From: Vulcanimicrobiota bacterium | GTDB lineage: Bacteria > Vulcanimicrobiota > Vulcanimicrobiia > Vulcanimicrobiales > Vulcanimicrobiaceae | Length of the DNA: 64,000 bases | NCBI GenBank assembly: GCA_027315245.1 | Contig: DAHUYK010000128.1 | Location: 6,648 to 70,647, forward strand | Direction of reading: 5' to 3' | Shown: positions 17,057 through 54,434 of the stretch, in pieces | How the letters are laid out: the number at the start of each line of letters is the position of its first letter | Numbering within the stretch: position 1 is the stretch's first letter | Notes under the pieces: generated by a model | Database searches by the model: none | What the model was told of the DNA's origin: nothing | The model's input: the letters and a program-made list of their open reading frames with translations, nothing else | Program-made: the position numbers and the translations under genes

Positions 17057-18190
17057 ATGATCGGCGAGGTGCGCGTCTCACTCGGTGCGCTTCGGCGCAA
17101 CGCGCGCGCCCTGCAGCAACTCGTCGGGACGGGTCGCGCCGCCTTCGTCGTGAAGAGCAACGCGTACGGCCATGGCCTCACACAAGCGGCGATCGCCATC
17201 GAAGGCTTCGCCGTGCGCATCTGCGTGTTCGCCGTCGAAGAGGCGATCGCGTTGCGCGAAGGGGGCGTCAACGCGCCGATTCTCGTGCTCGGCCCGGTAC
17301 CGCCCGAAGCGCTGGACGCGGCGCTCGCGGCGCGGGCCGAGATCGCGCTCTGGGATACGCGCAACTTCCTCCACGATCTCGCCGGTGCTTCTCGCCGGCG
17401 CTCCGAGCCGGCAAACGTGCACGTGAAGGTGAACACGGGCCTCAATCGCTTCGGCCTGGAGCCCGGCGAAGTGGCTGACGCAATCGAAGACTATACGCGC
17501 ATTAAAGAGTTGCGCATCATCGGCGTTTTCTCGCATCTTGCCGCAGCCGAAGAGATCGACTCGCCCTACACGATGCAGCAGCTCGCGCGCTTCGAACGCG
17601 CGATCGCCGAGGCAAAGCCGCTTCTCGAGCGCAACGGCATCACGCCCTTTCGCCACATCGCGGGGTCGGCCGCCGCGATGCTCTGGCCGCAGACGCGGCT
17701 CGACTTCTCGCGCTTCGGCATTGCGCTCTACGGACTCTGGCCGTCGGCCGCGACGCAAGAGGCGATGGGGCACGAAGCGATCGTGCTCGAGCCGGCGCTC
17801 TCGATGCACTCGGCACTCGCGGTGACGCGCCCGGTCGCCGCTGGTGAACCCGTCGGCTACGGCAACACCTTTGTGGCACCGCACGAGATGCAGATCGGCA
17901 TCGTGCCGATCGGCTATGCCGACGGCATTCCACGGGCGCTCTCTAGCCGAGGTACGTTTCTCGTCGAAGGCGAGCGCTGCCCCATCGTCGGCCGCGTCGC
18001 GATGAACACGACGGCGATCGACATCTCCACGGCGAAGCACGCGCGGCCTGGAACCGCGGTGACGCTCATCGGGCGCGATGGCGACGAGAGCGTGAGCGCG
18101 GACGACTGGGCACAGTGGACCCAGACGATCAACTACGAGATCGTCACTCGCATTCCACCGCACGTCCCCCGCTGCTACATCGACGACTGA
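17057..18190 (+). CDS. alr: Alanine racemase
   Basis: 377 aa. PLP-lysine motif AFVVKSNAYGHG and conserved C-terminal beta-domain (GYADGIPR...RVAMN). Confidence 0.92.
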   Translation: MIGEVRVSLGALRRNARALQQLVGTGRAAFVVKSNAYGHGLTQAAIAIEGFAVRICVFAVEEAIALREGGVNAPILVLGPVPPEALDAALAARAEIALWDTRNFLHDLAGASRRRSEPANVHVKVNTGLNRFGLEPGEVADAIEDYTRIKELRIIGVFSHLAAAEEIDSPYTMQQLARFERAIAEAKPLLERNGITPFRHIAGSAAAMLWPQTRLDFSRFGIALYGLWPSAATQEAMGHEAIVLEPALSMHSALAVTRPVAAGEPVGYGNTFVAPHEMQIGIVPIGYADGIPRALSSRGTFLVEGERCPIVGRVAMNTTAIDISTAKHARPGTAVTLIGRDGDESVSADDWAQWTQTINYEIVTRIPPHVPRCYIDD

Positions 18191-18202
18191 ACGAGCAGGT
18201 CG

Positions 18203-18922
18203 CTAGGCGAGCTCGCGTATCGCCTGCGCGAGATCGATCGTGTCCTTGTACAGGGCGCTGCCGATGATGCACGAGTCGACGGCCTCGATGCCGGCGGCAG
18301 CGAGCGTGCGCAGATCATCGAGGCTGCGCGCGCCGCCGCTCGCCGTGATACTGACGGGAGCGGCCTTCGCGACCGCGCGCAGCGCGTCCATGTCGTAGCC
18401 CATGCCCATGCCGTCGCGGCGAATCTCGGTAAAGATGATGCGCTCGACGCCCCATTGAGCGACACGCCGCACGAGCGCGTCGCGTGCAACCGGCGTGCGC
18501 TCGACCCAGCCGTGCGTCGCAACCTCCTCACCGCGAGCGTCGATGCCGGCGATCACCTTCGCTCCGAGCCGTCCGATGATGTTGCGCGCGATGCGCTCCT
18601 CCTCGACCAACAGCGTGCCGAGAATCACTTCGCTGGCTCCGGCGTCCAGCCGCGACTGCGCCATCTCGAGGGTCCGAACGCCGCCTCCGGTCTGCACGGG
18701 CACCGAGACGGCGGCGCAAATCCGCTCGATCGCACGCACGTTCTCGCCCGATCCGAAGGCACCGTCGAGGTCGATGACGTGCAGACGCTGCGCTCCAGCC
18801 TGCACGAAGCGCTGCGCACGAGCGACTGGGTCGCGGTCGTACACCGTCGCCGTCGCAAGGTCGCCCGCCTCCATTCGGACGCATGCGCCGTCGCGCAGAT
18901 CGATGGCCGGAATGACGATCAT
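18203..18922 (-). CDS. hisA: ProFAR isomerase (HisA)
   Basis: 239 aa. MIVIPAIDLRDG start, (beta/alpha)8 HisA pattern, 4-nt overlap with the hisH stop. Confidence 0.9.
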   Translation of the reverse strand: MIVIPAIDLRDGACVRMEAGDLATATVYDRDPVARAQRFVQAGAQRLHVIDLDGAFGSGENVRAIERICAAVSVPVQTGGGVRTLEMAQSRLDAGASEVILGTLLVEEERIARNIIGRLGAKVIAGIDARGEEVATHGWVERTPVARDALVRRVAQWGVERIIFTEIRRDGMGMGYDMDALRAVAKAAPVSITASGGARSLDDLRTLAAAGIEAVDSCIIGSALYKDTIDLAQAIRELA

Positions 18923-19542
18923 CGCCGCTCCTTCGCGAGCGAGACGAAGTTATCCAGCAAGATTCCGCCCGCGCGCTGGCTCTTCTCGGGATGAAACTGC
19001 GTCCCCAGCACGTTGTCGTGAGCGACGATCGCCGAAAAGCGTTCGCCGTACGTGCACGCGGCCAGCGTGCTCGGCCCGACGGCGACGCGGTACGAATGCA
19101 GAAAGTAGACGTAGTCCCGCGCGTCGACACCCGCCGTGAAGCGATGCGGCGTGACCTGTTCGAGCCGATTCCAACCCATATGCGGAACGCGTGGTGCGTC
19201 GTGGAAGCGGTCCACGACGCCGGCGATGATGCCGAGACCCTCGCAGGCATCGAGCTCCGTCGAGCGTTCGAAGAGGATCTGCATGCCGACGCAGATGCCG
19301 AGAAAGGGAACGCCGCGCGCAATCGCATCGCGTAGCGCGCCGTCGAGACCGCGCGTTGCGAGGGCGTGCATCGTTGCGCCGAACGCGCCGTCGCCCGGCA
19401 GCACGACAGCGCTCGCGCTCCGCACCGCCGCGGCGTCCGCTGCGAGCGTCAACGCCGCACCGCGCCGTTCCAAGGCGGCCACGAGCGAGCCCAGATTTCC
19501 GGCGCCGTAGTCTACGACGGCAATGGCGCTCAGGAGCGTCAC
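18919..19542 (-). CDS. hisH: Imidazole glycerol phosphate synthase, glutamine amidotransferase subunit
   Basis: GTG at 19542 gives VTLLSAIAVVDYGAGNLGSL. Nucleophile motif FLGICVGMQILF and C-terminal GTQFHPEKS. The Arg-rich 34-codon track extension was trimmed. Confidence 0.9.
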   Translation of the reverse strand: MTLLSAIAVVDYGAGNLGSLVAALERRGAALTLAADAAAVRSASAVVLPGDGAFGATMHALATRGLDGALRDAIARGVPFLGICVGMQILFERSTELDACEGLGIIAGVVDRFHDAPRVPHMGWNRLEQVTPHRFTAGVDARDYVYFLHSYRVAVGPSTLAACTYGERFSAIVAHDNVLGTQFHPEKSQRAGGILLDNFVSLAKERR

Positions 19543-19549
19543 GCGCCTC

Positions 19550-20149
19550 CTATTCGAGCACGCCCTTCGTCGAGGGTATCTCGTTGCCGACAATCGCTTT
19601 CGCTTGGCCGAACGCTCGCGCGAAGCTCTTGAAGGATGCCTCACAAAGATGGTGCGCTACGTGACCGTTCATCTGTACGAGATGCAGCGTCATCTTTGCG
19701 TTGTCGGTGACCGCACGAAAGAACTCACCGACCATTTCGGTCGGCATTTCGCCGAGATTTTCGCGCAGAAAGTTCACGCGAAAGTTTAGATAGGGCCGGC
19801 CGGAGAGATCGACGCTTGCCGCGACGAGCGCGTCGTCCAGCGGAGCCATCATCGACCCGAAGCGAGCGATGCCTCGTTTATCGCCGAGCGCCTCGTGGAT
19901 TGCCGAACCGAGCGCAATGCCGACATCCTCGATGAGATGATGGTTATCCATGCCGTCGCCCTTCGCCACCACGGTGAGGCCGATCGCGGCATGGGTGCCG
20001 AGCGCATGGAGCATGTGGTCGAGGAAATCGACGCCCGTCGTGGCCTTCACGGCGCCGCCGTCGAGATCGACCGCCACCTCGACCGACGTCTCGTTCGTGA
20101 CGCGCGAAAGTGACGCCCGGCGATGCACCAGGTGCGCCGTTTCAAGCAT
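19550..20149 (-). CDS. hisB: Imidazoleglycerol-phosphate dehydratase
   Basis: ATG at 20149. Motifs TNETSVEVAVDLDG, DNHHLIEDVGIALG, NGHHLCEASFKSFARA. Confidence 0.9.
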   Translation of the reverse strand: MLETAHLVHRRASLSRVTNETSVEVAVDLDGGAVKATTGVDFLDHMLHALGTHAAIGLTVVAKGDGMDNHHLIEDVGIALGSAIHEALGDKRGIARFGSMMAPLDDALVAASVDLSGRPYLNFRVNFLRENLGEMPTEMVGEFFRAVTDNAKMTLHLVQMNGHVAHHLCEASFKSFARAFGQAKAIVGNEIPSTKGVLE

Positions 20150-20182
20150 GAAGCGGCGGACCCTTGTGAGAACGCAGGACGC

Positions 20183-20608
20183 ATGGAGCCACTCGACCTG
20201 ACGACGCACCCGCCGCGCAGTCCCAGCGTACGGCTCGGCGGGCTGCTCATGCTTGCGCGAACGATCGACAAGCTGCGTGCAACCCTGCCGGGCGGCAATC
20301 TCGGCCAGTACTATATTCGCGGGTTCTCAGCCGTACTGCTCGAGCGGCTCGGCATCGACGAAGGGGCGCTGTCCGACGCGGTTGCACGAGCGAAGACCGA
20401 CGACGACGTCGTCGCCTACGTACTCGAGCACAGCACCGCATCGGAGTACGGCGCGATCAACGCGGTTCTGCGCAGCCGTCTCATCGGCGACCGCATCGCA
20501 GAGGCGGACTTCGTCGCGCGCTACCCGATCGTCACGTCGCTCCCGCGCGAGATGCCGGTGATCGAGATGCTCGATTACGACGATCGCGCGATGTTCCCGG
20601 CTCGCTAG
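20183..20608 (+). CDS. DUF5069 domain protein
   Basis: 141 aa from the ATG at 20183. The DLTTHPPRSPSVRLGGLLMLARTIDKLRA pattern is characteristic of DUF5069. Divergent from hisB with only 33 bp between the start codons. Confidence 0.6.
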   Translation: MEPLDLTTHPPRSPSVRLGGLLMLARTIDKLRATLPGGNLGQYYIRGFSAVLLERLGIDEGALSDAVARAKTDDDVVAYVLEHSTASEYGAINAVLRSRLIGDRIAEADFVARYPIVTSLPREMPVIEMLDYDDRAMFPAR

Positions 20609-20612
20609 GAGC

Positions 20613-21554
20613 CTAGCGGTTGTTTCTCGCAAGTGCGAAGCCCACGAGGCGCCCGATCAGCGCCTCGTACGTGATGCCCGCCGCGGCGCACGCGTCGGGA
20701 AGCAGGCTCGCCGGCGAGAGTCCGGGCAGCGGATTGATCTCGAGCACGTACGGCCTTCCCTCTTTGCTCACGATGAAGTCGACGCGCGAGTAGTCGCGCA
20801 GACCGAGCAGGCGGTGCACGGAGAGCGCGAGCGTCTGCAAGCGGGTCGCGAGGTCGTCGTCAATCGGAGCGGGGGTCAAGTGCGTGCTGCCGCCGGGTTC
20901 GTACTTCGCGGCGTACGAGTAGAACTCGTCGACGTTCGCGATAACTTCAACGACCGGGAGCGCTTCATCACCGAGTATACTGCAGTGAAACTCGCGCCCC
21001 TGAACGTACTCCTCGGCAAGCGCCTGCGAGTAGTTCTTCGAAACATTCAGCATCGCGGTGGTCCACTGTTCGTGCGTGCGAACGATCGAGACCCCGACGG
21101 ACGAACCTTCATAGCGCGGTTTGACGACGAGCGGAAGGTCGAGCGAGCCCGGTAGAAGGGGCAGCGCCCCGCCCGCAAGGTCGAAGACGTCCCATGCGGC
21201 CGTCGGCAGTCCTTCGGCGGCAATGAGCTTTTTCGTGAGGTGCTTGTCCATTGCCAGCGCGCACGCTTCGACGCCGCTGCCGGTGTACGCGACGCGCATG
21301 TACTCGAGCACGCCCTGTATCTCGCCGTCTTCCCCATGCGTTCCGTGCAGCGCGTTGAAGAGCGCGTCTGGCATGAGATCGCGCAGTGCGTCGATGAAGC
21401 GCTCGTCGTAGTCGAGCGAGTGCGCCTCATATCCGAGCGATTCGAGCGCCTTCATCACCAGGCGCCCGGACTCGAGCGATACTTCGCGCTCGGAGCTCGG
21501 ACCGCCCATCACGACAGCGATACGTTCTCTGCGCTTACGCCTCGCCTCAGGCAT
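20613..21554 (-). CDS. ddl: D-alanine--D-alanine ligase
   Basis: ATG at 21554 (8-nt overlap with the murB stop). ATP-grasp fold: IAVVMGGPSSEREVSLESG, EINPLPGLSPASL. Confidence 0.92.
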   Translation of the reverse strand: MPEARRKRRERIAVVMGGPSSEREVSLESGRLVMKALESLGYEAHSLDYDERFIDALRDLMPDALFNALHGTHGEDGEIQGVLEYMRVAYTGSGVEACALAMDKHLTKKLIAAEGLPTAAWDVFDLAGGALPLLPGSLDLPLVVKPRYEGSSVGVSIVRTHEQWTTAMLNVSKNYSQALAEEYVQGREFHCSILGDEALPVVEVIANVDEFYSYAAKYEPGGSTHLTPAPIDDDLATRLQTLALSVHRLLGLRDYSRVDFIVSKEGRPYVLEINPLPGLSPASLLPDACAAAGITYEALIGRLVGFALARNNR

Positions 21555-22500
21555 CGACGAACACGCCGACCAGGTGCACTTCCAACTCCAAATCGACTCC
21601 GCAGTGCTCGAACACGGCCCGGCGCACGCGTGCGAGTAGCGTCGCAACGTCCTTCGCCGTGGCCTTGCCGAGGTTGTTCACGAAGTTCGCGTGCAGAGGC
21701 GAAACCTCCGCGTCACCTTCGCGCCAACCCTTCGCACCGGCCGCTTCGATGAGCCGCGCTGCCTTGCCGGAGGGTGGATTGCGAAAGCAGGACCCGGCAT
21801 TCGGAAGCGCGATGGGCTGGCTGTTCTTGCGGCGCACGAGGCGACGCTGCATCTCGGCTCGCTCCTTGGAGGCATCGCCCCGGTCGAACGCCAGGGTCAC
21901 GCGTGAGACGACCGCATCGTGCGCGAGCGTCGTATGACGATAGTAATACTGCAGCGTCACGGCGTGGGGATCGGGTTTCGCCGGCGATTGCACCCACACG
22001 TCGCGCACGAAATCGCCGATCTCCCGGTCGGTGCCCGCGTTCATGCGCAGTGAGCCGCCGACCGTGCCGGGTATCCCGGCGAGCGACCCAATCGCATGCG
22101 CTCCGGCTGAGGCCGCCTTTGCCGTGAGCGCCGCCATGCCGGCGGAGGCTCCGGCGCTGACGATGATCCCGTCTCCGTCGACGCGGACGTCGATCCGCGC
22201 AAACGCGCCAGCGAGGTGCAGAACGAGGCCGCGAATGCCGCCGTCGCCGACGAGCATGTTGCTGCCGCTTCCGATCACAAACCACGGCATGCGCCGCCGC
22301 AGGCACCAGCGCATGACCTGCGCCAGCTCCGCCTCGCTCTCGACGGTCAGGAGCGCGTCCGCCGGCCCGCCGATGCGCCACGAGGTACACGGCGCGAGCG
22401 GCGCGTCGAACGCCGCATGTTCGCCGGCGATTGCTCGGAGCGCGCCGCGGTCGGCATCGTCGAGCAGCGAACGGAGCGCTGCTTGCGTCGTGACGCTCAC
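21547..22500 (-). CDS. murB: UDP-N-acetylenolpyruvoylglucosamine reductase
   Basis: 317 aa. FAD-binding PCMH domain (WRIGGPADAL...VIGSGSNMLV), C-terminal MurB domain. 4-nt overlap with the murC stop. Confidence 0.92.
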   Translation of the reverse strand: MSVTTQAALRSLLDDADRGALRAIAGEHAAFDAPLAPCTSWRIGGPADALLTVESEAELAQVMRWCLRRRMPWFVIGSGSNMLVGDGGIRGLVLHLAGAFARIDVRVDGDGIIVSAGASAGMAALTAKAASAGAHAIGSLAGIPGTVGGSLRMNAGTDREIGDFVRDVWVQSPAKPDPHAVTLQYYYRHTTLAHDAVVSRVTLAFDRGDASKERAEMQRRLVRRKNSQPIALPNAGSCFRNPPSGKAARLIEAAGAKGWREGDAEVSPLHANFVNNLGKATAKDVATLLARVRRAVFEHCGVDLELEVHLVGVFVDA

Positions 22501-23855
22501 GCGACGCGATGCGCCAGACGCGCGGCGGCGTCGGTAATGTTGCCGGCTCCCAACATGAGCACGAGCGCGCCCACGGGCGCCTCGGAAGCGATGCGTCCGT
22601 CCAACTCGTCGACGCCACCGACGTACTGCACCGCCGTTCCCTGCGCAGCGAGCGGCTCGCCGATGGAGGCGGACGTGATGCCGGGAAGCGGCGGCTCCGA
22701 CGCGGCGTAGATGGGCGCGAGATAGACGCGGTCGGCGCCACGGAGCGCATCGGCGAAACCCCGGGCGAGGTAGGCGGTGCGGCTGAAGCGGTGCGGCTGA
22801 AATGCGACGACGATAGGGCCGGCGTGGTAAGCGCGCGCCGTAGCAATCGTCTCCCGTATCGCCGTTGGATGATGCGCGTAATCGTCGACGACCGTCATAC
22901 GCGCGTTCGCGCAGAGCACATCGAAGCGCCGGCGCACGCCGCGGAAGCCGTGCAGCGCATCTCCAATGCGCACGAACGGAATCTCGAGCCGGCGCCCCAC
23001 TGCAACGGCTGCGAGCGCGTTGCAGACGTTCATCACCCCGGGCACGGAGAGGTCGACGGTGCCCAAACAGACGCCGCCGGCAACGACGTCGAACGACGTG
23101 CTCAAGCCGCGCGCCTGCAGGTTCACGCCGCGCACGTCCGCCGATTGCGCGAAACCGAACCCCACACCGGCGCAGTGCCGAGGCAGCGCCAGCAGCGACG
23201 CAGCGCGCGGCTCGTCGACACCGACGATCGCGAGCCCGCCAGCGGGAAGGCGCGCGAGAAACTCCGCAAACTTCTCAACGAGATGCGGCAACTCGTCGTC
23301 GCTCGATAGATGGTCGTTTTCGATGTTCGTAACGACGGCGATCTCCGGCTCGAGGATCGAGAAGGAGCCATCGGACTCGTCGGCCTCCGTCACCAACCAT
23401 GGTGACGATCCGCCGTACGCGTTTGAATCGAGCGTCGCGTCGATGCCGCCAAGGGCAAGTGTCGCGTCGATGCCGCCCGCGCGCAGCACGGCGTGAATCA
23501 TTGCCGTCGTCGTCGTCTTTCCATGCGTTCCTGAGATCGCGATGCCGCGTCGCTCTCGCAGCAGTTGCGCGAGAAGCTCGCCGCGGTGCAGCAGCGGGAT
23601 CCCGGCGCTTCGCGCTTGCACGTACTCGGGGTTGTCGCGTTCGATGGCGGAGCTGAAAACGACGCGCTGCGCGCCTGCAACGTTTTCGCGCGCGTGGCCG
23701 ATGCGCACGTCCGCACCCTCTTCCCGCAGCCGCGTGAGGAGCGGCGTTTCATGCCGGTCCGAGCCGCGCACGCTGTCGCCGCGCGCAAGCAACAGGCGCG
23801 CGAGCGCGCTCATGCCGATGCCCCCGATGCCGATGAAATGCGTGACCTGCCCCAT
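22497..23855 (-). CDS. murC: UDP-N-acetylmuramate--L-alanine ligase
   Basis: 452 aa. HFIGIGGIGMSALA and Mur ligase P-loop GTHGKTTTT. Confidence 0.95.
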   Translation of the reverse strand: MGQVTHFIGIGGIGMSALARLLLARGDSVRGSDRHETPLLTRLREEGADVRIGHARENVAGAQRVVFSSAIERDNPEYVQARSAGIPLLHRGELLAQLLRERRGIAISGTHGKTTTTAMIHAVLRAGGIDATLALGGIDATLDSNAYGGSSPWLVTEADESDGSFSILEPEIAVVTNIENDHLSSDDELPHLVEKFAEFLARLPAGGLAIVGVDEPRAASLLALPRHCAGVGFGFAQSADVRGVNLQARGLSTSFDVVAGGVCLGTVDLSVPGVMNVCNALAAVAVGRRLEIPFVRIGDALHGFRGVRRRFDVLCANARMTVVDDYAHHPTAIRETIATARAYHAGPIVVAFQPHRFSRTAYLARGFADALRGADRVYLAPIYAASEPPLPGITSASIGEPLAAQGTAVQYVGGVDELDGRIASEAPVGALVLMLGAGNITDAAARLAHRVA

Positions 23856-26084: not shown

Positions 26085-27480
26085 GCGTTCCTTGGGCGAG
26101 CATCTCGACCGCGCGCGCGAACTGCCGCCCCCGGTCTTCGGCATCATGGAACATGTCGAAGGAGGCGCAGGCCGGTGCGAGCAGCACGACGTCGCCGGGC
26201 TGCGCGGTGCGATGCGCGCGATCGACTGCTTCCTCCATCGAGGCGGCTCGCTGCACGGGCACCTCGCCCGCGATGCGCGCGATCGCTGGCGCCGCTTCGC
26301 CGATAGCGATCGCGGATCGGGCATGCTCACGTATTGCCACACCCAGGCCGGCGAAATCCGTTTGCTTCTCGCGGCCGCCGGCGATGAGCACGACGGGGGC
26401 GTGAAACGCTCGCAGCGCGGCCACCGCCGCCGAAGGATTCGTCGCCTTGGAATCGTCGACGTAAAGCACACCGTCGATCTCCGCAACGCGCTGCAAGCGA
26501 TGCGGCAGCCCGCTGAAGCTGCGAACGCCCGCCCGCAGCTCTTGTGGCTCGCATCCGGCGCACAGCGCCGCAAGCATCGCCGCCATCGTGTTACGCAGGT
26601 TGTGCTCGCCGAGCAGCGGCACGTCGGCGCGATCCAGCACCGCGACGGGATCTGCCCCAGGCTGCGACGCGCAGATCGTATCGCCGCGGAGCCACATCGC
26701 ATCGGTGCGCTCGGCTCTTTGCGTCGTATACCAGAACCGCGCCGGCGGGCAATCGGCTCGCGCGAAAGCGTCTTCGAGGCCTCGCAGGCGCGCGTCGTCC
26801 CGGTCGAGCACGATCGCGTCGCCGTCGCCCTGGTTGAGGAAGATGCGAAATTTCGCGCGCGCGTACTCGTCGATCGAAGCGTAACGGTCGAGGTGGTCGG
26901 CCTCGATGTTGAGCATCACGGCGATGCGGGGCCGCAGCGCGTCGATCGTCTCTAATTGAAAGGACGAGAGCTCGGCCACGACCCACGAGCGTGCCGTTGC
27001 GCCGGCAACCGCGTTGACGAGCGGCTCGCCGATGTTACCGCCGAGTCGCGCGTCTTTGCCGCAGGCGCGCAGCAGGTGCGCGATGAGTGCGGCAGTCGTT
27101 GACTTTCCTTTTGTGCCCGTGACGGCAATCATCGGCGCATCGCAGAGCCGCCACGCCACCTCCACTTCGCCGATCGCCGGGACTCCTGCGGTGCGCACGC
27201 GCGTCGCGACGACGGAAGATGGCGGCACGCCGGGCGAAAGCACCGCGAGCGTCGCCTGCGCGAGCACGGCATCCAACTCGGCGGGTGCTGCAAACGCGGC
27301 ACCGGCGGCTTCCAGACGCGCGATGCGCTCGAGCAACTCCGCACGGGGCTTTTCGTCCGTCGCGATCACGCGCGCACCGCGCGCACGCAGCGCTTGCGCA
27401 CTCGCGATTCCACTCTTGCCGAGGCCCACCACGAGCACGGTCTGCGAGTCGAATCGCTGCGAGGCGTCAGAGATTCCCAA
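26077..27480 (-). CDS. murD: UDP-N-acetylmuramoylalanine--D-glutamate ligase
   Basis: 467 aa. VVGLGKSGIA Rossmann motif and GTKGKSTT P-loop. TTG start overlapping the mraY stop by 14 nt. Confidence 0.93.
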   Translation of the reverse strand: MGISDASQRFDSQTVLVVGLGKSGIASAQALRARGARVIATDEKPRAELLERIARLEAAGAAFAAPAELDAVLAQATLAVLSPGVPPSSVVATRVRTAGVPAIGEVEVAWRLCDAPMIAVTGTKGKSTTAALIAHLLRACGKDARLGGNIGEPLVNAVAGATARSWVVAELSSFQLETIDALRPRIAVMLNIEADHLDRYASIDEYARAKFRIFLNQGDGDAIVLDRDDARLRGLEDAFARADCPPARFWYTTQRAERTDAMWLRGDTICASQPGADPVAVLDRADVPLLGEHNLRNTMAAMLAALCAGCEPQELRAGVRSFSGLPHRLQRVAEIDGVLYVDDSKATNPSAAVAALRAFHAPVVLIAGGREKQTDFAGLGVAIREHARSAIAIGEAAPAIARIAGEVPVQRAASMEEAVDRAHRTAQPGDVVLLAPACASFDMFHDAEDRGRQFARAVEMLAQGTRA

Positions 27481-28429
27481 TGACCCATCCTACCACGGAA
27501 CAGAGCAGCGACGCGAGCCAAAAGCAGAACGTGACCGTGCGTTCGGGCCAGCCTGCCAGCTCGAAGTGATGGTGCAATGGACTCATGAGAAATATCCGGC
27601 GACCGCCGGAGAGTCGAAAGTAGGCGACCTGCAGCATCACCGAGAGCGCTTCGGCGACGAAAAGGCCACCGATGACGACGAGCAAGAGCACCTCTCCATC
27701 GAGAACCGCCGCACCGGCGAGCAACCCGCCGAGCGCGAGCGAGCCCGTATCGCCCATGAACATGCGCGCAGGATGGCGATTGTACACGAGAAATCCGAGC
27801 GCGCCGCCGATCGCGAAGGCGAATACCGCCGGCCACGCCGTGGGCGACGCGCCGGAGACGAGCGCGAGCGCCCATAGAACGTAGAGCGGCGGGATGATGG
27901 ACCCCGCCGCCAAACCGTCGAGCCCGTCGGTGAGATTCACGGCGTGCGCCGCACCCGTCACGGCCAGGATGCCGAGCACGAGCCAGAGCCAATAGGGTAC
28001 GAGCAGCGCGTGGGTACCGGCTGCAAAGATCGTGTCGTTGGCCGGCACCATCCGCATGAAGATCGCCGCTACGAGCGCCGTCGCCAAGAACTTCGTACGC
28101 GCGCGCAGCCCGCTGTTCGAGCCCGCTGCGATGCCAACGAAATCGTCGGCCACGCCGACCGTCACGCAGCCAAAGACGAGGACCATGAGCGCTCGCACGC
28201 GCTCGTCGTGCGCGACGACCGCGGCGCACGCGATCGCAGCGAGAATCGCGAGACCCCCCATCGTCGGCGTGCCGGTCTTCTCGCGATGGCGTTCGGGCGC
28301 GTCCTCGTCCGCGGTCTGTCGCAGCGCGTAACGCGGTAAGATGCGCAGCAGCAGCCAGCCGGCGGCGAGCGTAACGACGAAACCCGTCGCGACTTGCCAG
28401 GCTAGGTCCGCGAACTGAGCGTGCGTCAT
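27467..28429 (-). CDS. mraY: Phospho-N-acetylmuramoyl-pentapeptide transferase
   Basis: ATG at 28429 (ATGA overlap with the upstream CofE-like gene). Motifs KTGTPTMGG and NLTDGLDGLA; polytopic membrane protein. Confidence 0.93.
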   Translation of the reverse strand: MTHAQFADLAWQVATGFVVTLAAGWLLLRILPRYALRQTADEDAPERHREKTGTPTMGGLAILAAIACAAVVAHDERVRALMVLVFGCVTVGVADDFVGIAAGSNSGLRARTKFLATALVAAIFMRMVPANDTIFAAGTHALLVPYWLWLVLGILAVTGAAHAVNLTDGLDGLAAGSIIPPLYVLWALALVSGASPTAWPAVFAFAIGGALGFLVYNRHPARMFMGDTGSLALGGLLAGAAVLDGEVLLLVVIGGLFVAEALSVMLQVAYFRLSGGRRIFLMSPLHHHFELAGWPERTVTFCFWLASLLCSVVGWVIGNL

Positions 28430-29136
28430 GCGTTCACGGGCGCGTGCACGAGCGGGTTCTTCCCGGCGGCTCGCCACTTCAGGACGACGATCGGCGTCTG
28501 CTCGTCTCCGTTACCGTGCGGATTTCCCCTGAGCACGCGCTCGAGCAGCTCACGGTTCACCGACGAGCTTGCACCGAGGACCTTTGCCTTTTCGAGGTCG
28601 TTTGCGTCCACGACGGCGCAGGCAACCCCGGTCATCGCCTCGGCAGACGCGCAGAAGCCATTGGGGTCGCGCGGCGCGAGCACGATGGCGCGCTCGTACG
28701 GGGGCAGCGTGCCGGTGTAGCCGTCGATCGCCGTCACTGCATTTCCCATGATCTCGTAGAACTTACCGCGATGGCCGCGCAGCCGCGCTGCAACGTGTGC
28801 GATCGCCGCGTAGAGCACCTTACGCGAACCGGCTGCGTCGATGACGAGCTGCAGGGACTCCGGTTGATTCACCGTTGCAAGCGCGCCGGCACGCCGCGAG
28901 AGCGCGTAGGCCAAGCGCGATGGCCGTACGTACTCCGCGACGACGAGTTCGCCTTGCGCGATCGCGACGGCGCTCTCAGAGATCGCGATGACGTCGCCCC
29001 CGCGAGCGATGCCCGCGACGACCGAACCGAGGAGCGCAACGAAGTCGTCACCGGGACGCACGAGCGGCGTGCGCACGGGTATCGCAACGAGTCCGGCTGG
29101 TACGCCATCGCGGGCGACGGAAAGGGGACGGATCAC
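28426..29136 (-). CDS. CofE / F420-0:gamma-glutamyl ligase-like (PF01996-like) protein embedded in the dcw operon
   Basis: 236 aa from the GTG at 29136 (GTGA overlap with the murF stop); its stop overlaps the mraY ATG (ATGA). Three blocks resemble archaeal CofE as recalled: VRPGDDFVALL...GGDVIAISESAVAIAQGE versus IKEGDDLAELI...DGDVLVVCSTVISKAEGR, VLAPRDPNG...ACAVVDAND versus LLPPLDPDG...VGVIITDTNGR, and GNPHGNGDEQTPIVVLK versus GEGGDGIPAVVVRG. Similarity was judged by eye only. Confidence 0.6.
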   Translation of the reverse strand: MIRPLSVARDGVPAGLVAIPVRTPLVRPGDDFVALLGSVVAGIARGGDVIAISESAVAIAQGELVVAEYVRPSRLAYALSRRAGALATVNQPESLQLVIDAAGSRKVLYAAIAHVAARLRGHRGKFYEIMGNAVTAIDGYTGTLPPYERAIVLAPRDPNGFCASAEAMTGVACAVVDANDLEKAKVLGASSSVNRELLERVLRGNPHGNGDEQTPIVVLKWRAAGKNPLVHAPVNA

Positions 29137-30500
29137 GCTCTGCGCAGCTCCTCGACGATCTCTTCCATTTGATATTTGCGCGACCCCTTGAGCAGCACGA
29201 GGTCGTCGTGCGCGACGTGAGCGCGCAGCCATTGCGCGGCATCGTGATTCGTCGCGTACCGCACGATGCGCTGCCGCGCGAGGCCGGCATCCCGCGCACC
29301 GCGCTCGGTTTCCTGCGCGAACTCGCCGCCGGCAAGCAGCCAATCGACGCTGCTCGCAGCGTGCGCACCGACGCGCTCGTGCAGCGCCGGCGCCTCGGTT
29401 CCGAGCTCAGCCATGCCGCCGAGAACGGCGATTCGATGCCGCGCGGGTTCGCCGGCAAAGGCGTCGAGGGCCGCGATCGTCCCCGACGCGCTGGCATTGT
29501 ACGCATCGAAGATGAGCTGGACGCTGCCGAGCGCGAGACGTTCGAAGCGGCCGGGCGGTAGAGAGAGCGACGGAACGGCGTCGGCGACGTCGTCGAGTGG
29601 AACGCCGAACTCGAGCGCGACGGCGATGGCGGCGGCAAGATTCGTATGGTTGTGACTGCCCGCGAGGCGCACGTCGACGGCGCGCTCGTGCCGTTTGCCT
29701 GAAGCGTCGAGAACGAGCAGGCGCCCCCCTCCGAGAAGCGCACTGAGCGGACGCTCCATCTCCGGCTCCCGGTCCCCGGCGTAAAACCAGCGCGGCGGCT
29801 GTGAGAGCGCTGGTGCGCGCTCGCGCGACACCTCGTCGGAGAGATTGAGCACGGCGCGCGCACCGAGTGAAAACATGGCCCATTTCGTCTCCGCGAGCCG
29901 CTCGCGCGAGCCCATGATCTCGAGGTGCGCCTCGCCGACGTTCGTCAGCACTCCGGCGTGAGGGCGCGCGACCGCCACGAGCACGGCAACGTCGCCGTAC
30001 TTGCGTGCGCCCATCTCGACGACGAGCACGTCGTCTGCGTCGTTCGATGCCGCGAGCAGCAGCTTGGCAACGCCGATTTCATTATTTTCATTGCCGGGTG
30101 ATGAGAGCACACGGTACCGGCGCTCGAGCAGCTGCGCCGCGAGCACCTTCGTCGTCGTCTTTCCGGTGCTGCCGGTGATCGCGACGACCTTTCCCGTGAA
30201 CCGTTCGCGTGCCGCAGAGGCCAGCGCAAGGTATGCCGCGAGCGTCTCGTGGACGAGAAGTACCGTCACTCCCGGGACGAGCGCGCGCTCGTCGTCCGCG
30301 ATCACCGCCGCGGCGCCGGCCGCAACGGCGCGCTCGATGAAGTCATGGCCATCGTACCGCTCGCCGCGCAAGGCGAGAAACGTCTCGCCGGCCTTAAGCG
30401 CGCGCGTGTCGGTGACGACGCGCACTCCTGTGGGCGCGCGCTCCGGTTCGATGACCGCAGCATTCGTCACGCGGACGGCGACGTCAAAGGGAAGCGTCAT
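29133..30500 (-). CDS. murF: UDP-N-acetylmuramoyl-tripeptide--D-alanyl-D-alanine ligase
   Basis: 455 aa. Mur ligase P-loop ITGSTGKTTTK. Position after murE with a 4-nt overlap. Confidence 0.93.
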   Translation of the reverse strand: MTLPFDVAVRVTNAAVIEPERAPTGVRVVTDTRALKAGETFLALRGERYDGHDFIERAVAAGAAAVIADDERALVPGVTVLLVHETLAAYLALASAARERFTGKVVAITGSTGKTTTKVLAAQLLERRYRVLSSPGNENNEIGVAKLLLAASNDADDVLVVEMGARKYGDVAVLVAVARPHAGVLTNVGEAHLEIMGSRERLAETKWAMFSLGARAVLNLSDEVSRERAPALSQPPRWFYAGDREPEMERPLSALLGGGRLLVLDASGKRHERAVDVRLAGSHNHTNLAAAIAVALEFGVPLDDVADAVPSLSLPPGRFERLALGSVQLIFDAYNASASGTIAALDAFAGEPARHRIAVLGGMAELGTEAPALHERVGAHAASSVDWLLAGGEFAQETERGARDAGLARQRIVRYATNHDAAQWLRAHVAHDDLVLLKGSRKYQMEEIVEELRRA

Positions 30501-33711: not shown

Positions 33712-34119
33712 CTACCGGGAGAGAAAGGCGAGCGGGCGCCCCTGCACCGCGGGTTTCGGAACGAGACTGATGCGCAGGAACTGCGTCGGCTGCACCATGT
33801 GAAGCCGTGCGGCAACCGCTGCCAGGCGGTCGTCGGCGGTCAACGACGCAATCTCGTCTTCGTCACGCGCCACCTGCGCGCGCACCGCCGAACGTTCCGC
33901 GTGCACGCGATCGACGGCGTACGATAGCGACGTGATATTCGCGATGAGCAGGACGTACAAGAGCAGCACCGCCAAACCGACCGCGGTACATATCGTGATG
34001 CGCGTGACCGTCGAGTAGCGGCTGCGTGCGTTACCCGCCATCCGCCGCTGCGTAGCCGTACGGGCGGTGCGCGGATTGCGAATTCGAGGCGTCGCCGCCT
34101 CCAAGCGCAGTGCCGTCAT
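33712..34119 (-). CDS. ftsL: FtsL-like small bitopic cell-division protein
   Basis: 135 aa. Basic N-terminus, single TM helix (ICTAVGLAVLLLYVLLIANI), then a short coiled-coil-like segment. ATGA overlap with the rsmH stop. The true start may be an internal ATG (MAGNARS). Confidence 0.7.
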   Translation of the reverse strand: MTALRLEAATPRIRNPRTARTATQRRMAGNARSRYSTVTRITICTAVGLAVLLLYVLLIANITSLSYAVDRVHAERSAVRAQVARDEDEIASLTADDRLAAVAARLHMVQPTQFLRISLVPKPAVQGRPLAFLSR

Positions 34120-38446: not shown

Positions 38447-38923
38447 ATGCCCATGCCGCGGCTCGCTCCGATCGCATTTGTGTTCGCCCTGCTCTACGGA
38501 TGCGCGGGGGGAGGATACATACCCAGCGCCTCCCGGGCGCTCAGCGACCTGCAGCTTAACGATCTCGTCGCGCAGGCTTCCGCAGCTCACGCCTTGCCTG
38601 CCGGCCTCGTGCGGGCCGTGCTCATGGCGGAGTCCGGCGGCGATCCGTCGGCGATCTCCATCGCCGGTGCCGAGGGGCTCATGCAGTTGATGCCCGGCAC
38701 GGCGGCGCAGTGCGGCATCGATCCGTTCGAGCCGGTGTCGAACGTCGATTGCGGCAGCGCCTATCTGAAGTCGCTGCTCACGCGCTATCACGGAGACGTC
38801 GTGCTCGCCGTGGCCGCGTATAACGCTGGTCCCGGCGCGGTGGACTCGTATCACGGCGTGCCGCCGTACGCGGAGACGCGCGCCTACGTTGCACGCGTCA
38901 TCTCCAGCTACCGGAGTTATTAG
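38447..38923 (+). CDS. Soluble lytic transglycosylase (SLT domain) lipoprotein
   Basis: 158 aa. Lipobox FALLYGC; SLT catalytic region MAESGGDPSAISIAGAEGLMQLMP and AAYNAGPGAV. Confidence 0.88.
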   Translation: MPMPRLAPIAFVFALLYGCAGGGYIPSASRALSDLQLNDLVAQASAAHALPAGLVRAVLMAESGGDPSAISIAGAEGLMQLMPGTAAQCGIDPFEPVSNVDCGSAYLKSLLTRYHGDVVLAVAAYNAGPGAVDSYHGVPPYAETRAYVARVISSYRSY

Positions 38924-38944
38924 GGCGCTTCGCCCAGGCGCTCG

Positions 38945-40099
38945 ATGGCGACGCTGAGTTTGCGCCGGCTCTTACCCTACACGAGGTCGCGCGCGCACTT
39001 TTTGCCCATTCTCGACGCGTACTTGCTGCGAGAGATGGCATGGCCCTTCGTCGGCGCCTTCTTCGCGTACTTCATCTTTTGGGCGCTCAACATCTTCGTG
39101 CTTTCGGCGCAGTACATCATCAACGAGCACGTCTCGTTCTTCCTCGCACTGCGGTTCGTCATCTTGCGCGTGCCGCAAGCGATTCCGATGGCCTTCCCGT
39201 TCGCGTCGCTCGTCGCGGCGCTCCTTGCCATGGGACGGCTCATGGGCGACAACGAGATCAACGCGATGCGCACGTCGGGCATCAATATTCTGCGCATTGC
39301 CGCAACCCCGCTCGTCTTCGGTTTCGTCATGTTCCTCGTGACGTACGCGATGAACGAGTTCGTCGCTCCGCCGTCAGTCGATCTCTCGACGCGCGCGTTC
39401 TACCAGATGATCTATCACTCCGACTCACTGCCGTTCGAGACGCAGTTCTTCCGCAAAGACCCCGACACAGGCAATACGTTCTACGTGACGCAGGTCGGCC
39501 CCGACGGCAAGACGCTCTACGGGGTCCAGATCTTCAAGCCCGGGCGCGACGGGCCGTGGAACGAAACGCTCCAAGCCCGCAAGGGCGTCATCGCCGGTAC
39601 GGTGCTCGTCCTCAAAGACGTGATCGACACGCGCTTCAACGCGCAAGGCTACGTCATCGGCCAGCAGCACGTGCGTTCGGTGACGATCGGCTTGCCGGTT
39701 CAGGAGTCCGCGGCGCAGTTTTTGAGCACGGCCAACAACGACCCGTGGGCGATGAGCAGCAAGCAGCTCGCTCTACACGTTCACGCGATGGAGCAGCAAG
39801 GCATTGGCGGCGCGACGCTTGGCACGATGCAGTTTACGCTTGCCAATAAGGTCGCGTGGCCGTTTGCATGTTTCATCGCCGTCTTGATTGCGCTGCCGCT
39901 CGCCATCCGGTTCGGAAAACGCGGGCGGATGCTCGGTATGGCACTCTCGATCGTGGCGTTTTTCTTTTACTTCGTTTTGACCTCGGCTGCGTCGGCCTTC
40001 GGCACGAGCGGCGCAATGAACACCTATGTTGCAGCCTGGCTTCCGAACATCATCATGGGTGTCACGGGCGCGGCCTTGCTGCGGCTCGAAGACCGTTAG
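38945..40099 (+). CDS. LptF/LptG-family (YjgP/YjgQ) LPS export permease
   Basis: 384 aa. N-terminal ILDAYLLREMAWPF pattern, three TM helices, a ~130-aa periplasmic insert, three TM helices: the standard LptF/G topology. Confidence 0.8.
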   Translation: MATLSLRRLLPYTRSRAHFLPILDAYLLREMAWPFVGAFFAYFIFWALNIFVLSAQYIINEHVSFFLALRFVILRVPQAIPMAFPFASLVAALLAMGRLMGDNEINAMRTSGINILRIAATPLVFGFVMFLVTYAMNEFVAPPSVDLSTRAFYQMIYHSDSLPFETQFFRKDPDTGNTFYVTQVGPDGKTLYGVQIFKPGRDGPWNETLQARKGVIAGTVLVLKDVIDTRFNAQGYVIGQQHVRSVTIGLPVQESAAQFLSTANNDPWAMSSKQLALHVHAMEQQGIGGATLGTMQFTLANKVAWPFACFIAVLIALPLAIRFGKRGRMLGMALSIVAFFFYFVLTSAASAFGTSGAMNTYVAAWLPNIIMGVTGAALLRLEDR

Positions 40100-40115
40100 G
40101 AAAGATACCGTTCGC

Positions 40116-42572
40116 GTGCGTGCCTTTCGCAATCGTCCGGCACTCGCAGCACTGGCGTGCCTCTACGCCCTAGCGAGTGGCAATGTCGCCGCCGCCGCGG
40201 CGGCGGCGCAGACGCCAGCGCTCGAGAACGCGCGTGCGATCTCGCTGCTCGACGCGACGCCCTGCGGCACGGTCCCTCGCGGGAGCATCGAGGTAGCGCA
40301 GGTTCCAGCGACTCCGACGCCATCACCGGCGCCGACGAACGTCCCCGTCGGCGGCCTGCCCCAGCCGTCAAACGGAACGCTGCAGTTCTTCCAAACGCCG
40401 CGGCCGTTTGGATCGCCGGCACCGTCGCCGCCGCCTCTTCCGTCGGTCGCCGCGACGCCCACCGCCGGCCCCATCTTTCTCGTGCGCGGCGGCGTGACGC
40501 CGCCGCCGATCACGCCGGCGGGCCAAGGTGCTCCCCCACCGACGCCGGAGCCAACCGGCGTCCCGACGCTCCCGCCCGGATACGTCGCGATCATCGCCGA
40601 TCACGTCACCGGCAATACGAAGCTGGGGCAGCCCGGTGATGCCGAGGGCAACGTGCACATCTACTACGGACAGGACGAGATCGTGGGGCAGCGTGCGCAC
40701 TACGACGGCGACCGCACCGTCACGGTCACCGGACACCCGTTCATCATCGACGAGCAGCGCGATTCGATTCTCAACGCCAACGAGATCTACTTCGACACGA
40801 TCGATCAGACCGCGCGGCTCGTCAACGGAAACGGCGAGAGCGCGCAAGGCGTCGAGCGCGGGCTCGTGCATTACCGCGCGCAGGACATGCACACCGACGC
40901 GAACGGGACCGGACACGGTCAACATCCCTACGTTACGACGTGCGAGCATCCACGCGGCGGCTACCACATCACCGGCAGAAACATGGACGTCATCCCGGGC
41001 GACCGCATCGTCATCTACGACGCGATCCTTTGGCTCGGCGCCGCCGCCGTCTTCTTCCTGCCCAAGGTCGTCATTCCGCTGCGCCAAGTGGTCACGCGCA
41101 GCGAGCGTCAGCAGTACTTTCCCAACGTCGGGTACGATGCGTACGAAGGCTACTGGATTCAGACGAAGTTCGCGTTCGGCAAAAATCGCTACTACTACGG
41201 CTACTACGAACTCAACTACTACTCGAAGGTCGGCCTCGGGATCGGCTACGTTGCATTCTTCGCGCGCCCCAACGGGCGCCGCAGCGGAAACGTCAACTTC
41301 TATCACATTCACGACCGCCGCGTCGGTCAGACACAGACGAACCTCACCGTTCAAGAGACGGAGAACTTCTCGAACACACTCCATTCGACGGTGAACTACT
41401 CCTATCAGTCGAACTACGGACCGCTGACGAATCTGCCCGCCAATGAGAACCTGTCGCTCAACGTGGCGCATCACACCGAGAAGGACTCGCAAGATTACAC
41501 CTTTACGCACACGAGCGTCGGAACGCAGTCACAGTCCAACGGCCTGACGTTTGCAGACACCATTCAGTTCAACCCTGCCCTGAGCGAGTCGCTGAACTTC
41601 AGTCTCACGAACAGCCAATCGCATTACGGTACGTTCTCTTCCTCGAATGCGTCGGCCACGATCGATTCGGTCTTGCACTGGACGACGAGGGGGGCGGACT
41701 ATCAGCTGACGTGGGATCGCTCGTACTCCCGCGTGCCGTTCGGCGACAACGAGACTCCCCAACTGGATATACGGCCGTACCAGTTCTTTCCGCACTTCAT
41801 TTTTCCGGTGTCGGCACAGTTCACCCTCGGTCAGTACAGCGAGCCGTCGAATGCGTTTCACTCTCAGCGCGCTGATCTCGCCTTCGTGCTCGGACCGGCG
41901 GTGTACAGGGTCTTCGGATCGGACTTTCAGGCGACCGTCGACGTCAACCAGTACGCGTACGGCACGGGTGACCTCAAAGCATCCATCACGCAACTCATGT
42001 CGCTCACGACGCCGATCACGAATCACATCGTGAACATGGTCACGTACAACGAGGCGAACTACAACGGACCGCCGGCGGTTCCGTTTCAATACCTCGACCA
42101 GCTGCCGACGCAGAACACGAAGGGAGCGCAGGACTTGTTGCGCCTCTTCAACGGCTCCGTCTACAATCTTTCGCTCGGCTTTTCGACGCTCTTCGACGCA
42201 AAGGCGCAACCGGTGAGTTATCAGTTCCAGCTCAGCCCGACCGCGAACTCGGTGCTGCTGCTCGGCGGGTCGTATCTGCCGGGGCCGGGGCTCGGCTTCC
42301 AAGAGACGAACGTGCAGATGTCGGTGCCATTCGGACGCGACACGCAACTCGAGTTCGCCGGCAACGTGAACTGGGACATCCATCGGCGCATCACCGACAA
42401 GATCGTCTACCTCACGAAGACAATCGGCCAGTGCTACCAGGTGCAAGTGCTCTACAACGAGGACTCCAAGCTCGTCAACGTCTCGCTCGATCTGCTCGCC
42501 TTCCCAACACACGCAATTGGCTTCGGCGTCGGCCAGGGCGGCGCGCTCATTCCGAGTAACTTCAACTTTTAG
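40116..42572 (+). CDS. LptD/OstA-like outer-membrane protein with a Pro-rich N-terminal linker
   Basis: GTG at 40116, preceded by AGGAAAG. Signal-like ALAALACLYALASGNVAAAAAAAQ, then a ~120-aa Pro/Thr-rich segment. OstA-like segment AIIADHVTGNT...AEGNVHIYYGQDEIVGQRAHYDGDRTVTVTGHPFI. Long Y/N/S/T-rich C-terminal region ending ...IPSNFNF (aromatic terminal residue, as in beta-barrel OMPs). Confidence 0.6.
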   Translation: MRAFRNRPALAALACLYALASGNVAAAAAAAQTPALENARAISLLDATPCGTVPRGSIEVAQVPATPTPSPAPTNVPVGGLPQPSNGTLQFFQTPRPFGSPAPSPPPLPSVAATPTAGPIFLVRGGVTPPPITPAGQGAPPPTPEPTGVPTLPPGYVAIIADHVTGNTKLGQPGDAEGNVHIYYGQDEIVGQRAHYDGDRTVTVTGHPFIIDEQRDSILNANEIYFDTIDQTARLVNGNGESAQGVERGLVHYRAQDMHTDANGTGHGQHPYVTTCEHPRGGYHITGRNMDVIPGDRIVIYDAILWLGAAAVFFLPKVVIPLRQVVTRSERQQYFPNVGYDAYEGYWIQTKFAFGKNRYYYGYYELNYYSKVGLGIGYVAFFARPNGRRSGNVNFYHIHDRRVGQTQTNLTVQETENFSNTLHSTVNYSYQSNYGPLTNLPANENLSLNVAHHTEKDSQDYTFTHTSVGTQSQSNGLTFADTIQFNPALSESLNFSLTNSQSHYGTFSSSNASATIDSVLHWTTRGADYQLTWDRSYSRVPFGDNETPQLDIRPYQFFPHFIFPVSAQFTLGQYSEPSNAFHSQRADLAFVLGPAVYRVFGSDFQATVDVNQYAYGTGDLKASITQLMSLTTPITNHIVNMVTYNEANYNGPPAVPFQYLDQLPTQNTKGAQDLLRLFNGSVYNLSLGFSTLFDAKAQPVSYQFQLSPTANSVLLLGGSYLPGPGLGFQETNVQMSVPFGRDTQLEFAGNVNWDIHRRITDKIVYLTKTIGQCYQVQVLYNEDSKLVNVSLDLLAFPTHAIGFGVGQGGALIPSNFNF

Positions 42573-42587
42573 GAGCCCTACGCGCCC

Positions 42588-54353: not shown

Positions 54354-54434
54354 CGATGGTTCGCCCTTCGACGGACGGGCGATGACGGGCCTGCGGAGAA
54401 GGGCCGCCGGACGCAGGCGCGTAAGGCTCCTCGC

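Follow-up and report, generated by a model that had tools for sequence, protein, structure and literature searches.

The 64,000-nt stretch of DNA analysed here (positions 6,648 to 70,647 of contig DAHUYK010000128.1, from a Vulcanimicrobiota bacterium; hereafter the window, to whose numbering coordinates refer unless another locus is named) carries on its minus strand a division and cell wall (dcw) cluster in the order mraZ-rsmH-(ftsL)-PBP-murE-murF-X-mraY-murD-ftsW-murG-murC-murB-ddl, in which PBP is a class B penicillin-binding protein and X is a CofE-like open reading frame (ORF) lying between murF and mraY (Table 1). The gene order of the dcw cluster is among the most conserved in bacteria. 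X itself qualifies as a dcw gene in that it is on the same strand as the mra, mur and fts genes, is contiguous with them, and keeps its position across species. A sequence-only reading of this DNA, made without database searches, had described a 236-codon ORF inserted exactly between murF and mraY and overlapping the stop of the one and the start of the other. Translation of X and Pfam matches to both neighbors confirm the placement, and both overlaps can be read directly in the sequence: murF ends in ...CGC AGA GCG TGA and X opens with GTG ATC CGT, just as X ends in ...GTG AAC GCA TGA and mraY opens with ATG ACG CAC.

Table 1. Coordinates of X, its two partner genes and the features discussed in the text, in window numbering.
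Feature	Position	Strand	Description
X (CofE-like ORF)	28426..29136	-	GTG start; 236 codons plus stop; uninterrupted translation
murF, upstream partner, 455 aa	29133..30500	-	Mur_ligase N, M and C domains (Pfam)
mraY, downstream partner, 320 aa from the ATG at 28429	27467..28429	-	Glycos_transf_4 and MraY_sig1
GTGA overlap	29133..29136	-	X GTG (29136-29134) and murF TGA (29135-29133) have TG in common
ATGA overlap	28426..28429	-	mraY ATG (28429-28427) and X TGA (28428-28426) have TG in common
GAGGAG hexamer in the murF 3' end	29148..29153	-	Shine-Dalgarno-like; 11 nt upstream of the X GTG; putative function
N-terminal block of X, residues 21-102	28831..29076	-	Sole part matched directly by PF01996 and PDB CofE sequences
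Asp138 codon, 'AIDGYTGT' motif	28723..28725	-	Placed by hhalign on the Asp of canonical CofE 'AGIDESN'
Asp177-Ala-Asn179-Asp180, 'VVDAND'	28597..28608	-	Aligned to the CofE 'ITD150-T151-N' metal-site motif
N205-P-x-G-N-x-D-E-Q-T-P215	28492..28524	-	Family-specific invariant motif; no canonical CofE counterpart

The G+C content of X by codon position is 0.73/0.50/0.79, equal to that of the adjacent genes. When scanned for promoters and terminators, neither the murF/X nor the X/mraY junction showed a candidate site. The only sensibly placed promoter-like match is upstream of mraZ, and the terminator-like matches lie inside coding sequence, in modest excess over expectation (12 found vs 6.2 +/- 2.8 expected from shuffles). 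A longer version of X with a TTG start (28426-29343) was rejected because this start falls within murF and the N-termini of homologues fit the GTG start. A plus-strand ORF of 242 aa (28444-29172; G+C content at third codon positions 0.73) was also discarded, as a high-GC antisense shadow of X and not a gene. Its third-position composition is nonetheless gene-like, and naive ORF callers may favor it over X.

Eremiobacterota is a globally abundant soil phylum, now with a cultured member. We sampled loci as one genome per GTDB species, taking the best 80 of 528 relatives, all of them of the Eremiobacterota/Vulcanimicrobiota type. The order murE-murF-X-mraY-murD was found in 80 of these 80 species loci, i.e., at every locus with enough flank, and the murF-X-mraY synteny that the sequence-only reading had left to a survey of related genomes was thus retained throughout. 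At 72 of 76 loci an X start codon is available with a 4-nt overlap of the murF stop. At the other junction, a possible mraY start shares 4 nt with the X stop in 64 of 78 cases and 1 nt in a further 5; these counts are somewhat biased by choosing the nearest start codon, but the frame relationship is still conserved. Even a 55%-identical lineage has the identical overlapping murE-murF-X-mraY-murD arrangement. Median identity to the proteins of the window is higher for X (67%) than for MurE (60%), MurF (57%), MraY (56%) or MurD (54%). Database searching returned 1773 X homologues at E<=1e-3 and one 100% identical protein (P0001); the closest 120 database homologues are 70-77% identical to X, and the named close homologues come from Eremiobacterota (Baltobacteraceae, Tyrphobacter and relatives). 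Being fixed between murF and mraY and more conserved than its neighbors, X may be an undescribed enzyme of cell-wall precursor synthesis, and not an F420 enzyme.

Four loci labelled 'Candidatus Acidiferrales' or 'Verrucomicrobiia' (L047, L050, L051 and L064) also show murF-X-mraY, with 67-71% identity to X. These are probably Eremiobacterota contigs that were mis-binned in the respective metagenome-assembled genomes.

The same early reading had likened X by eye to the CofE fold (PF01996), with three similar blocks and a divergent middle, and this assignment is upheld by both the Pfam and the structure-prediction results. The PF01996 (F420_ligase) profile matches X at 45.7 bits (gathering cutoff 25), although the match is limited to X residues 21-102, or profile positions 2-81 of 218. 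No other Pfam domain was found in X, whether Mur_ligase, ATP-grasp or Asn_synthase, so that X lacks the Mur_ligase_M and Mur_ligase_C domains of the Mur ligase family (MurC-F, Mpl, FolC). When X was compared with PDB sequences by phmmer, the sole match was Archaeoglobus fulgidus CofE, and a weak one (E 0.015), which improved to E 2e-5 with the family profile. The profile also yielded a weak second segment, in which 'VAVVDVN' falls on CofE 'VGVIITDTN' and Asp177 corresponds to Asp 150 of the 2G9I chain. An AlphaFold2 model of X built from a 136-sequence alignment is confident (predicted local distance difference test score, pLDDT, 87.0; predicted template modelling score, pTM, 0.84), and Foldseek placed it on the CofE structures 2PHN, 7ULD and 2G9I in the PDB (E 1.3e-9 to 5e-9, probability 1.0), with template modelling (TM) scores of 0.49-0.54, 18-20% identity, and no other match below E = 1.

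For comparison we used canonical cofE genes obtained by tblastn against plasmids, from Agrobacterium rubi, Sinorhizobium meliloti and a Streptomyces plasmid; tblastn of X itself against plasmids gave no match. The family profile aligned to the canonical CofE alignment in hhalign with 97.4% probability (E 1.4e-11, 186 aligned columns). In this alignment 'VVD177-A-N179-D180' lies on 'V(T/S)D-(T/S)-FGR', a register 2 residues off that of the HMMER alignment; the X family reads 'NDLxK' where canonical CofE reads 'DTFGRPWR', with Lys/Arg retained in the last strand; and the X family lacks ~28 residues that canonical CofE has between the DT motif and its last strand. The three blocks seen by eye correspond to the N-terminal Pfam block, 'IDG' (D138) and 'VVDAND' (D177-D180), and the divergent middle to residues ~74-135, which are all-helical in the AlphaFold2 model and align poorly to CofE. 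Given the Pfam, Foldseek and hhalign matches on the one hand and the failed equivalog models (below) on the other, X belongs to the CofE superfamily as a genuine but remote member and is no CofE equivalog.

A cofE homologue on a 1.6-Mb replicon of Natrinema gelatinilyticum (L086, 1492-2142) reads normally through 'NAGIDRSN' and then runs out of frame, and is either a frameshifted pseudogene or the product of a sequencing error.

The same comparisons bear on the simplest reading of the public annotation, namely that X is a true CofE, attaches gamma-glutamates to F420-0, and sits in the dcw cluster by chance. Members of the family, close homologues included, are indeed recorded as 'coenzyme F420-0:L-glutamate ligase' (P0014, P0036, P0061, P0077, P0079, P0099, P0290-P0292 and others), and the PF01996 match and CofE as the sole structural match agree with such a role. 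However, both NCBIfam CofE equivalog models score X below their cutoffs, TIGR01916 with 27.9 bits vs 180.65 and NF009809 with 25.1 bits vs 274, in each case over the N-terminal 80 residues only, and these scores lend no support to the public name. Identity to CofE is only 18-20%. In A. fulgidus CofE the F420 chromophore is held by a domain-swapped beta-hairpin, G153-C155, F92 and R234 (PMC10861534). The counterpart of G153-C155 in the X family reads 'DLxK' by hhalign; the motif after the DT site thus differs, and ~28 residues are missing nearby. As for genomic context, canonical cofE adjoins cofH and npdG in A. rubi and npdG in S. meliloti, whereas none of the ~42 ORFs scanned in the window is a cof, fbi or F420-dependent gene, and X is held between murF and mraY in all of the species surveyed. 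Eremiobacterota also go unmentioned in a review of F420. Taken together, we regard an F420 role for X as extremely unlikely.

A HMMER search run exhaustively over 1.84 billion cluster representatives returned 679 relatives. Those beyond the Eremiobacterota clade are 30-45% identical to X and usually carry the X domain as their C-terminal half, with a total length of ~400 aa. Among 75 multidomain representatives, Pfam identified TPR repeats (~11), Asn_synthase/GATase_7 (AsnB-like) domains (6) and Amidase_3 (6) as recurrent fusion partners, as well as single fusions to MurF, peptidase M20, polysaccharide deacetylase and GNAT; the rest had no annotated partner domain, and none of the 75 was fused to a folate enzyme. 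The MurF::X fusion is encoded downstream of murE on a 2.9-kb contig, and an Amidase_3::X fusion downstream of an Orn/Lys decarboxylase gene. Amidase_3 also recurs as a neighbor: in one lineage (L093/L094) a stand-alone X is divergent from an Amidase_3 gene, and in another (L097/L098) an operon Amidase_3 - ATPase_2/DUF234 - X adjoins a class A beta-lactamase gene.

At the N-terminus of the ~400-aa relatives, one hydrophobic helix precedes an Ig-like beta-sandwich, as modelled by AlphaFold2 for a 404-aa relative (pLDDT 92.8); this domain retrieved only generic adaptin-ear/ApaG-like structural matches, with no functional clue. The median number of Lys/Arg residues is 0 before the helix and 3 in the following 15 residues, and 99 of 104 such relatives have more after the helix than before it, i.e., an N-out/C-in arrangement. 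This charge bias, together with the positive-inside rule, predicts that the catalytic domain of the ~400-aa relatives is cytoplasmic and membrane-tethered.

Several of these ~400-aa genes are paired divergently with a gene for a 520-720-aa protein (L081 5272-6837, L082 5161-6834 and L084 4436-6589, all on the minus strand). The 520-720-aa proteins are mutually homologous (blastp E 1e-38 to 1e-66), have no Pfam match, and carry SHOCT-like repeats at the C-terminus. A STAS-domain gene lies downstream in 2 of the 3 loci.

One member of the wider family raises a different question, that of a role in folate metabolism. At L082/L083 (8206-9060), folD (THF_DHG_CYH) starts on the last base of a 401-aa CofE-like gene, a 1-nt overlap that implies translational coupling of this distant relative to folD. 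X could be a FolC2-type dihydrofolate synthase/folylpolyglutamate synthase that replaces a missing FolC. FolC is itself a homologue of the Mur ligases, which counts in favor of such a replacement, and the high conservation of X would fit an essential cofactor enzyme. A further point in favor is that CT611 of Chlamydia, a member of COG1478, complements Escherichia coli folC (PMC1971073; PMC4161248). Nevertheless, the chlamydial folC2 gene lies in a folate operon, while X is flanked by murF and mraY at every locus sampled and the window scan found no folate genes. The family's partners are Amidase_3, AsnB-like, MurF, TPR and deacetylase domains and never a folate enzyme, and the folD adjacency is confined to one lineage. 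A FolC2-type function for X is in our view highly unlikely.

The repeated association with Amidase_3, which recurs more than any other enzymatic partner in the family, invites yet another explanation. X could be a salvage ligase, analogous to Mpl or MurC, that attaches recycled stem peptide to UDP-N-acetylmuramic acid (UDP-MurNAc) at its D-lactyl carboxylate, re-forming the bond that Amidase_3 cuts. Amidase_3 hydrolyses the MurNAc-lactyl-L-Ala amide (Pfam: N-acetylmuramoyl-L-alanine amidase), and D-lactyl ligation of this kind is chemically attractive because the natural acceptor of CofE, the phospholactyl group of F420-0, is likewise a lactyl carboxylate (PMC10861534). However, the proposal is purely inferential, MurC is encoded in the same cluster, and it is left unexplained why a salvage enzyme should outdo the de novo ligases in conservation. 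We consider a salvage role quite unlikely.

The pattern of conserved residues speaks to whether X is an enzyme at all. In 121 of 121 Eremiobacterota sequences, D48, E54, D138, D177, N179, D180, N205, P206, G208, N209, D211, E212, T214 and P215 are 100% conserved; D48 and E54 belong to the N-terminal block, which also contains the 'ESAVAIAQG' motif. Without exception, 25 diverse family members share D48, D138, D177, N179, D180 and N205; conservation of E54 and T214 among them is at least 90%. The CofE residues that align with D138 and with D177/N179/D180 reportedly bind metal, as Nocek is said to have described in 2007. At residue 63 (28948-28950), most other family members have the Arg of 'QGR', as does canonical CofE in 'AEGR', but 120 of 121 Eremiobacterota sequences have Glu, Gln or Ala. 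This replacement in the dcw-embedded clade may reflect a change of specificity or mechanism.

X could alternatively be a non-catalytic subunit that binds UDP-MurNAc-pentapeptide or bridges MurF to MraY, in the manner of YvcK/GlmR. Translational coupling would imply near-stoichiometric synthesis with MurF and MraY, a MurF fusion exists, and the replaced 'QGR' Arg together with the unaligned Glu of the CofE 'ADE' motif would fit a lost activity. In contrast, eleven polar or acidic residues are invariant in the clade, several of them family-wide over many phyla and including the two motifs that align with the CofE metal site, which is typical of catalysis; fusions to Amidase_3, AsnB and M20 also suggest consecutive chemistry. 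A non-catalytic X is unlikely, though less so than a function in salvage, folate or F420 metabolism.

The fold and homology of X, its gene order and overlap geometry, its conservation, and the association of its relatives with peptidoglycan enzymes elsewhere are established by the results above. The reading that we favor, tentatively and at somewhat below an even chance, is that X is a cytoplasmic amide ligase of the CofE/FolC2 superfamily (PF01996, COG1478), dependent on a nucleoside triphosphate (NTP), that was recruited to peptidoglycan precursor synthesis. The simplest reading of the family, by analogy with CofE, is that it would retain CofE-type chemistry (NTP, two metals, acyl phosphate, amide) with a changed acceptor, since its acidic and amide residues stay invariant in proteins of widely different architecture, and two motifs line up with the metal site of CofE. 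A muramyl-peptide is the likeliest acceptor, and three independent lines of evidence speak for it: the fixation of murF-X-mraY across the phylum, the MurF fusion, and the repeated fusion or adjacency to Amidase_3. The AsnB-like and deacetylase fusions and the beta-lactamase neighbor give weaker additional support. A cytoplasmic amide ligase is also supported by the membrane-tethered relatives, whose catalytic domains would sit where NTP and lipid-linked precursors occur.

As regards the catalytic activity itself, its nucleotide and its two substrates, we infer from analogy the following course of events. X would share its transcript with murF and mraY, and its translation would be coupled to theirs. 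Asp138 and the Asp177/Asn179/Asp180 motif would bind two divalent metal ions, as in CofE, and these would position the NTP; a free carboxylate of the muramyl-peptide precursor would be converted to an acyl phosphate; and an amine, most likely that of an amino acid, would attack the acyl phosphate to give an amide. The precursor would be either UDP-MurNAc-pentapeptide fresh from MurF or lipid I fresh from MraY. The DNPR motif in MurE marks a stem peptide of the meso-diaminopimelate (mDAP) type. The MurE of the cluster carries this motif, so an mDAP stem with free D-isoglutamate (D-iGlu) alpha- and mDAP epsilon-carboxylates is expected, and the D-iGlu alpha-carboxyl and the mDAP epsilon-carboxyl are the candidate carboxylates.

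Several observations weigh against a muramyl-peptide ligase. Gene order by itself is no proof of function. The MurF::X fusion was seen on that single 2.9-kb contig, the AsnB-like::X fusion has no obvious cell-wall neighbors, and the ~400-aa proteins, the commonest relatives, are encoded outside dcw clusters. The family also has a folate link, the folD adjacency, albeit only this one and in one lineage. With regard to chemistry, the glutamate of the canonical CofE 'ADE' motif, which we take to be a third metal ligand, sits in a gap of the hhalign alignment; with this residue unaligned and the 'QGR' Arg replaced, the chemistry may differ from that of CofE or be lost. Finally, the peptidoglycan composition of the sole cultured member, Vulcanimicrobium alpinus, is absent from its paper (PMC9758169).

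A bolder form of the muramyl-peptide ligase proposal, which we think somewhat unlikely, is that X performs a new cytoplasmic step of peptidoglycan precursor synthesis with a ligase fold unlike those of the Mur ligases, ATP-grasp enzymes or AsnB/MurT, and that its relatives are widespread muropeptide ligases mis-annotated as F420 enzymes. By analogy, such a step could attach one more residue to a carboxylate of the stem peptide ahead of MraY, or it could join a peptide to MurNAc at the D-lactyl carboxylate. Relatives from Armatimonadota and other phyla, be they membrane-anchored or fusions with amidase or AsnB-like domains, would then belong to an overlooked family.

A full-text literature search combining F420 or CofE with peptidoglycan, murF, mraY and Eremiobacterota found neither a dcw-cluster CofE-like gene nor the X subfamily described, in line with the sequence-only reading, to which no dcw-embedded CofE-like component was known. 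X would be a ligase of the CofE/FolC2 superfamily with a probable new substrate class, and it may realistically stand for new peptidoglycan chemistry. The cytoplasmic peptidoglycan pathway (MurA-F, MraY, MurG) is generally held to be complete. Phylum-wide, X stands where the last soluble step (MurF) passes to the first membrane step (MraY), and it is more strongly constrained than the Mur enzymes, which points to a missing activity or partner in the Eremiobacterota pathway. If this is true, hundreds of 'coenzyme F420-0:L-glutamate ligase' genes would have to be re-annotated, counts of 'cofE' in metagenomic surveys could overestimate F420 capacity, and the CofE fold would have a third substrate class after F420 and folate.

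Elsewhere in the dcw cluster, the ftsL position between rsmH and the penicillin-binding protein gene is occupied by a 135-aa ORF without a Pfam match (33712-34119, minus strand). At the other end (17057-23855), murC-murB-ddl are followed directly by hisB, hisH and hisA in the same orientation; the cluster has no adjacent ftsQ, ftsA or ftsZ, and an alanine racemase gene lies just beyond (17057-18190, plus strand). A plus-strand block resembling envelope biogenesis genes (38447-44889) encodes an SLT lytic transglycosylase, LptF/G, and the apolipoprotein N-acyltransferase Lnt, consistent with a diderm organism, and includes an 848-aa ORF without a Pfam match (40026-42572). On the minus strand, a 913-aa ORF upstream of polA (52008-54749) has gene-like codon bias and no Pfam match, and a 706-aa protein (60847-62967) combines PAS, a SpoIIE-type PP2C phosphatase and HATPase_c_2 (anti-sigma kinase-like).

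Among known systems, X is closest to CofE and to FbiB's N-terminal domain (PF01996, TIGR01916; PDB 2PHN, 2G9I, 7ULD), with which it shares fold and superfamily. Common to both are the N-terminal 'GDD...GD..(V/I)..E/Q..(V/A)..(A/S)(Q/E)G' block, the alignment of Asp138 and Asp177-Asp180 with 'GIDESN' and 'D150-T151', and the size (236 vs ~250 aa). X differs in its 18-20% identity, a TM score of ~0.5, equivalog scores below the cutoffs, ~28 missing residues, a remodelled helical middle, its own invariant NPxGNxDEQTP motif, and its dcw rather than cof/fbi context. FolC2 of Chlamydia trachomatis (CT611, COG1478) belongs to the same superfamily and has a non-F420 role that was likewise proposed from operon context (PMC1971073, PMC4161248); it clusters with folBKPA where X clusters with murF and mraY, and its likeness to X is judged at the superfamily level. 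FolC2, whose role in folate synthesis (PMC1971073) the sequence-only reading had missed, is both a precedent for an acceptor switch in the superfamily and the source of the folate alternative.

MurT/GatD, AsnB1/LtsA, MurC-F and Mpl use an NTP to activate a carboxylate on a peptidoglycan precursor and then form an amide, and the logic proposed for X is alike. The folds of MurT/GatD, AsnB1/LtsA and the Mur ligases are unrelated to that of X, although AsnB-like domains are fused to the X family in some lineages, and we know of none of these enzymes that is normally encoded between murF and mraY. YvcK/GlmR, a CofD homologue in bacteria without F420, is a regulator that binds UDP-N-acetylglucosamine and acts in cell-wall precursor metabolism. 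Similar to what we propose for X, it is a homologue of an F420-biosynthesis protein repurposed for cell-wall precursors; unlike X, it belongs to the CofD rather than the CofE family and is encoded outside the dcw cluster.

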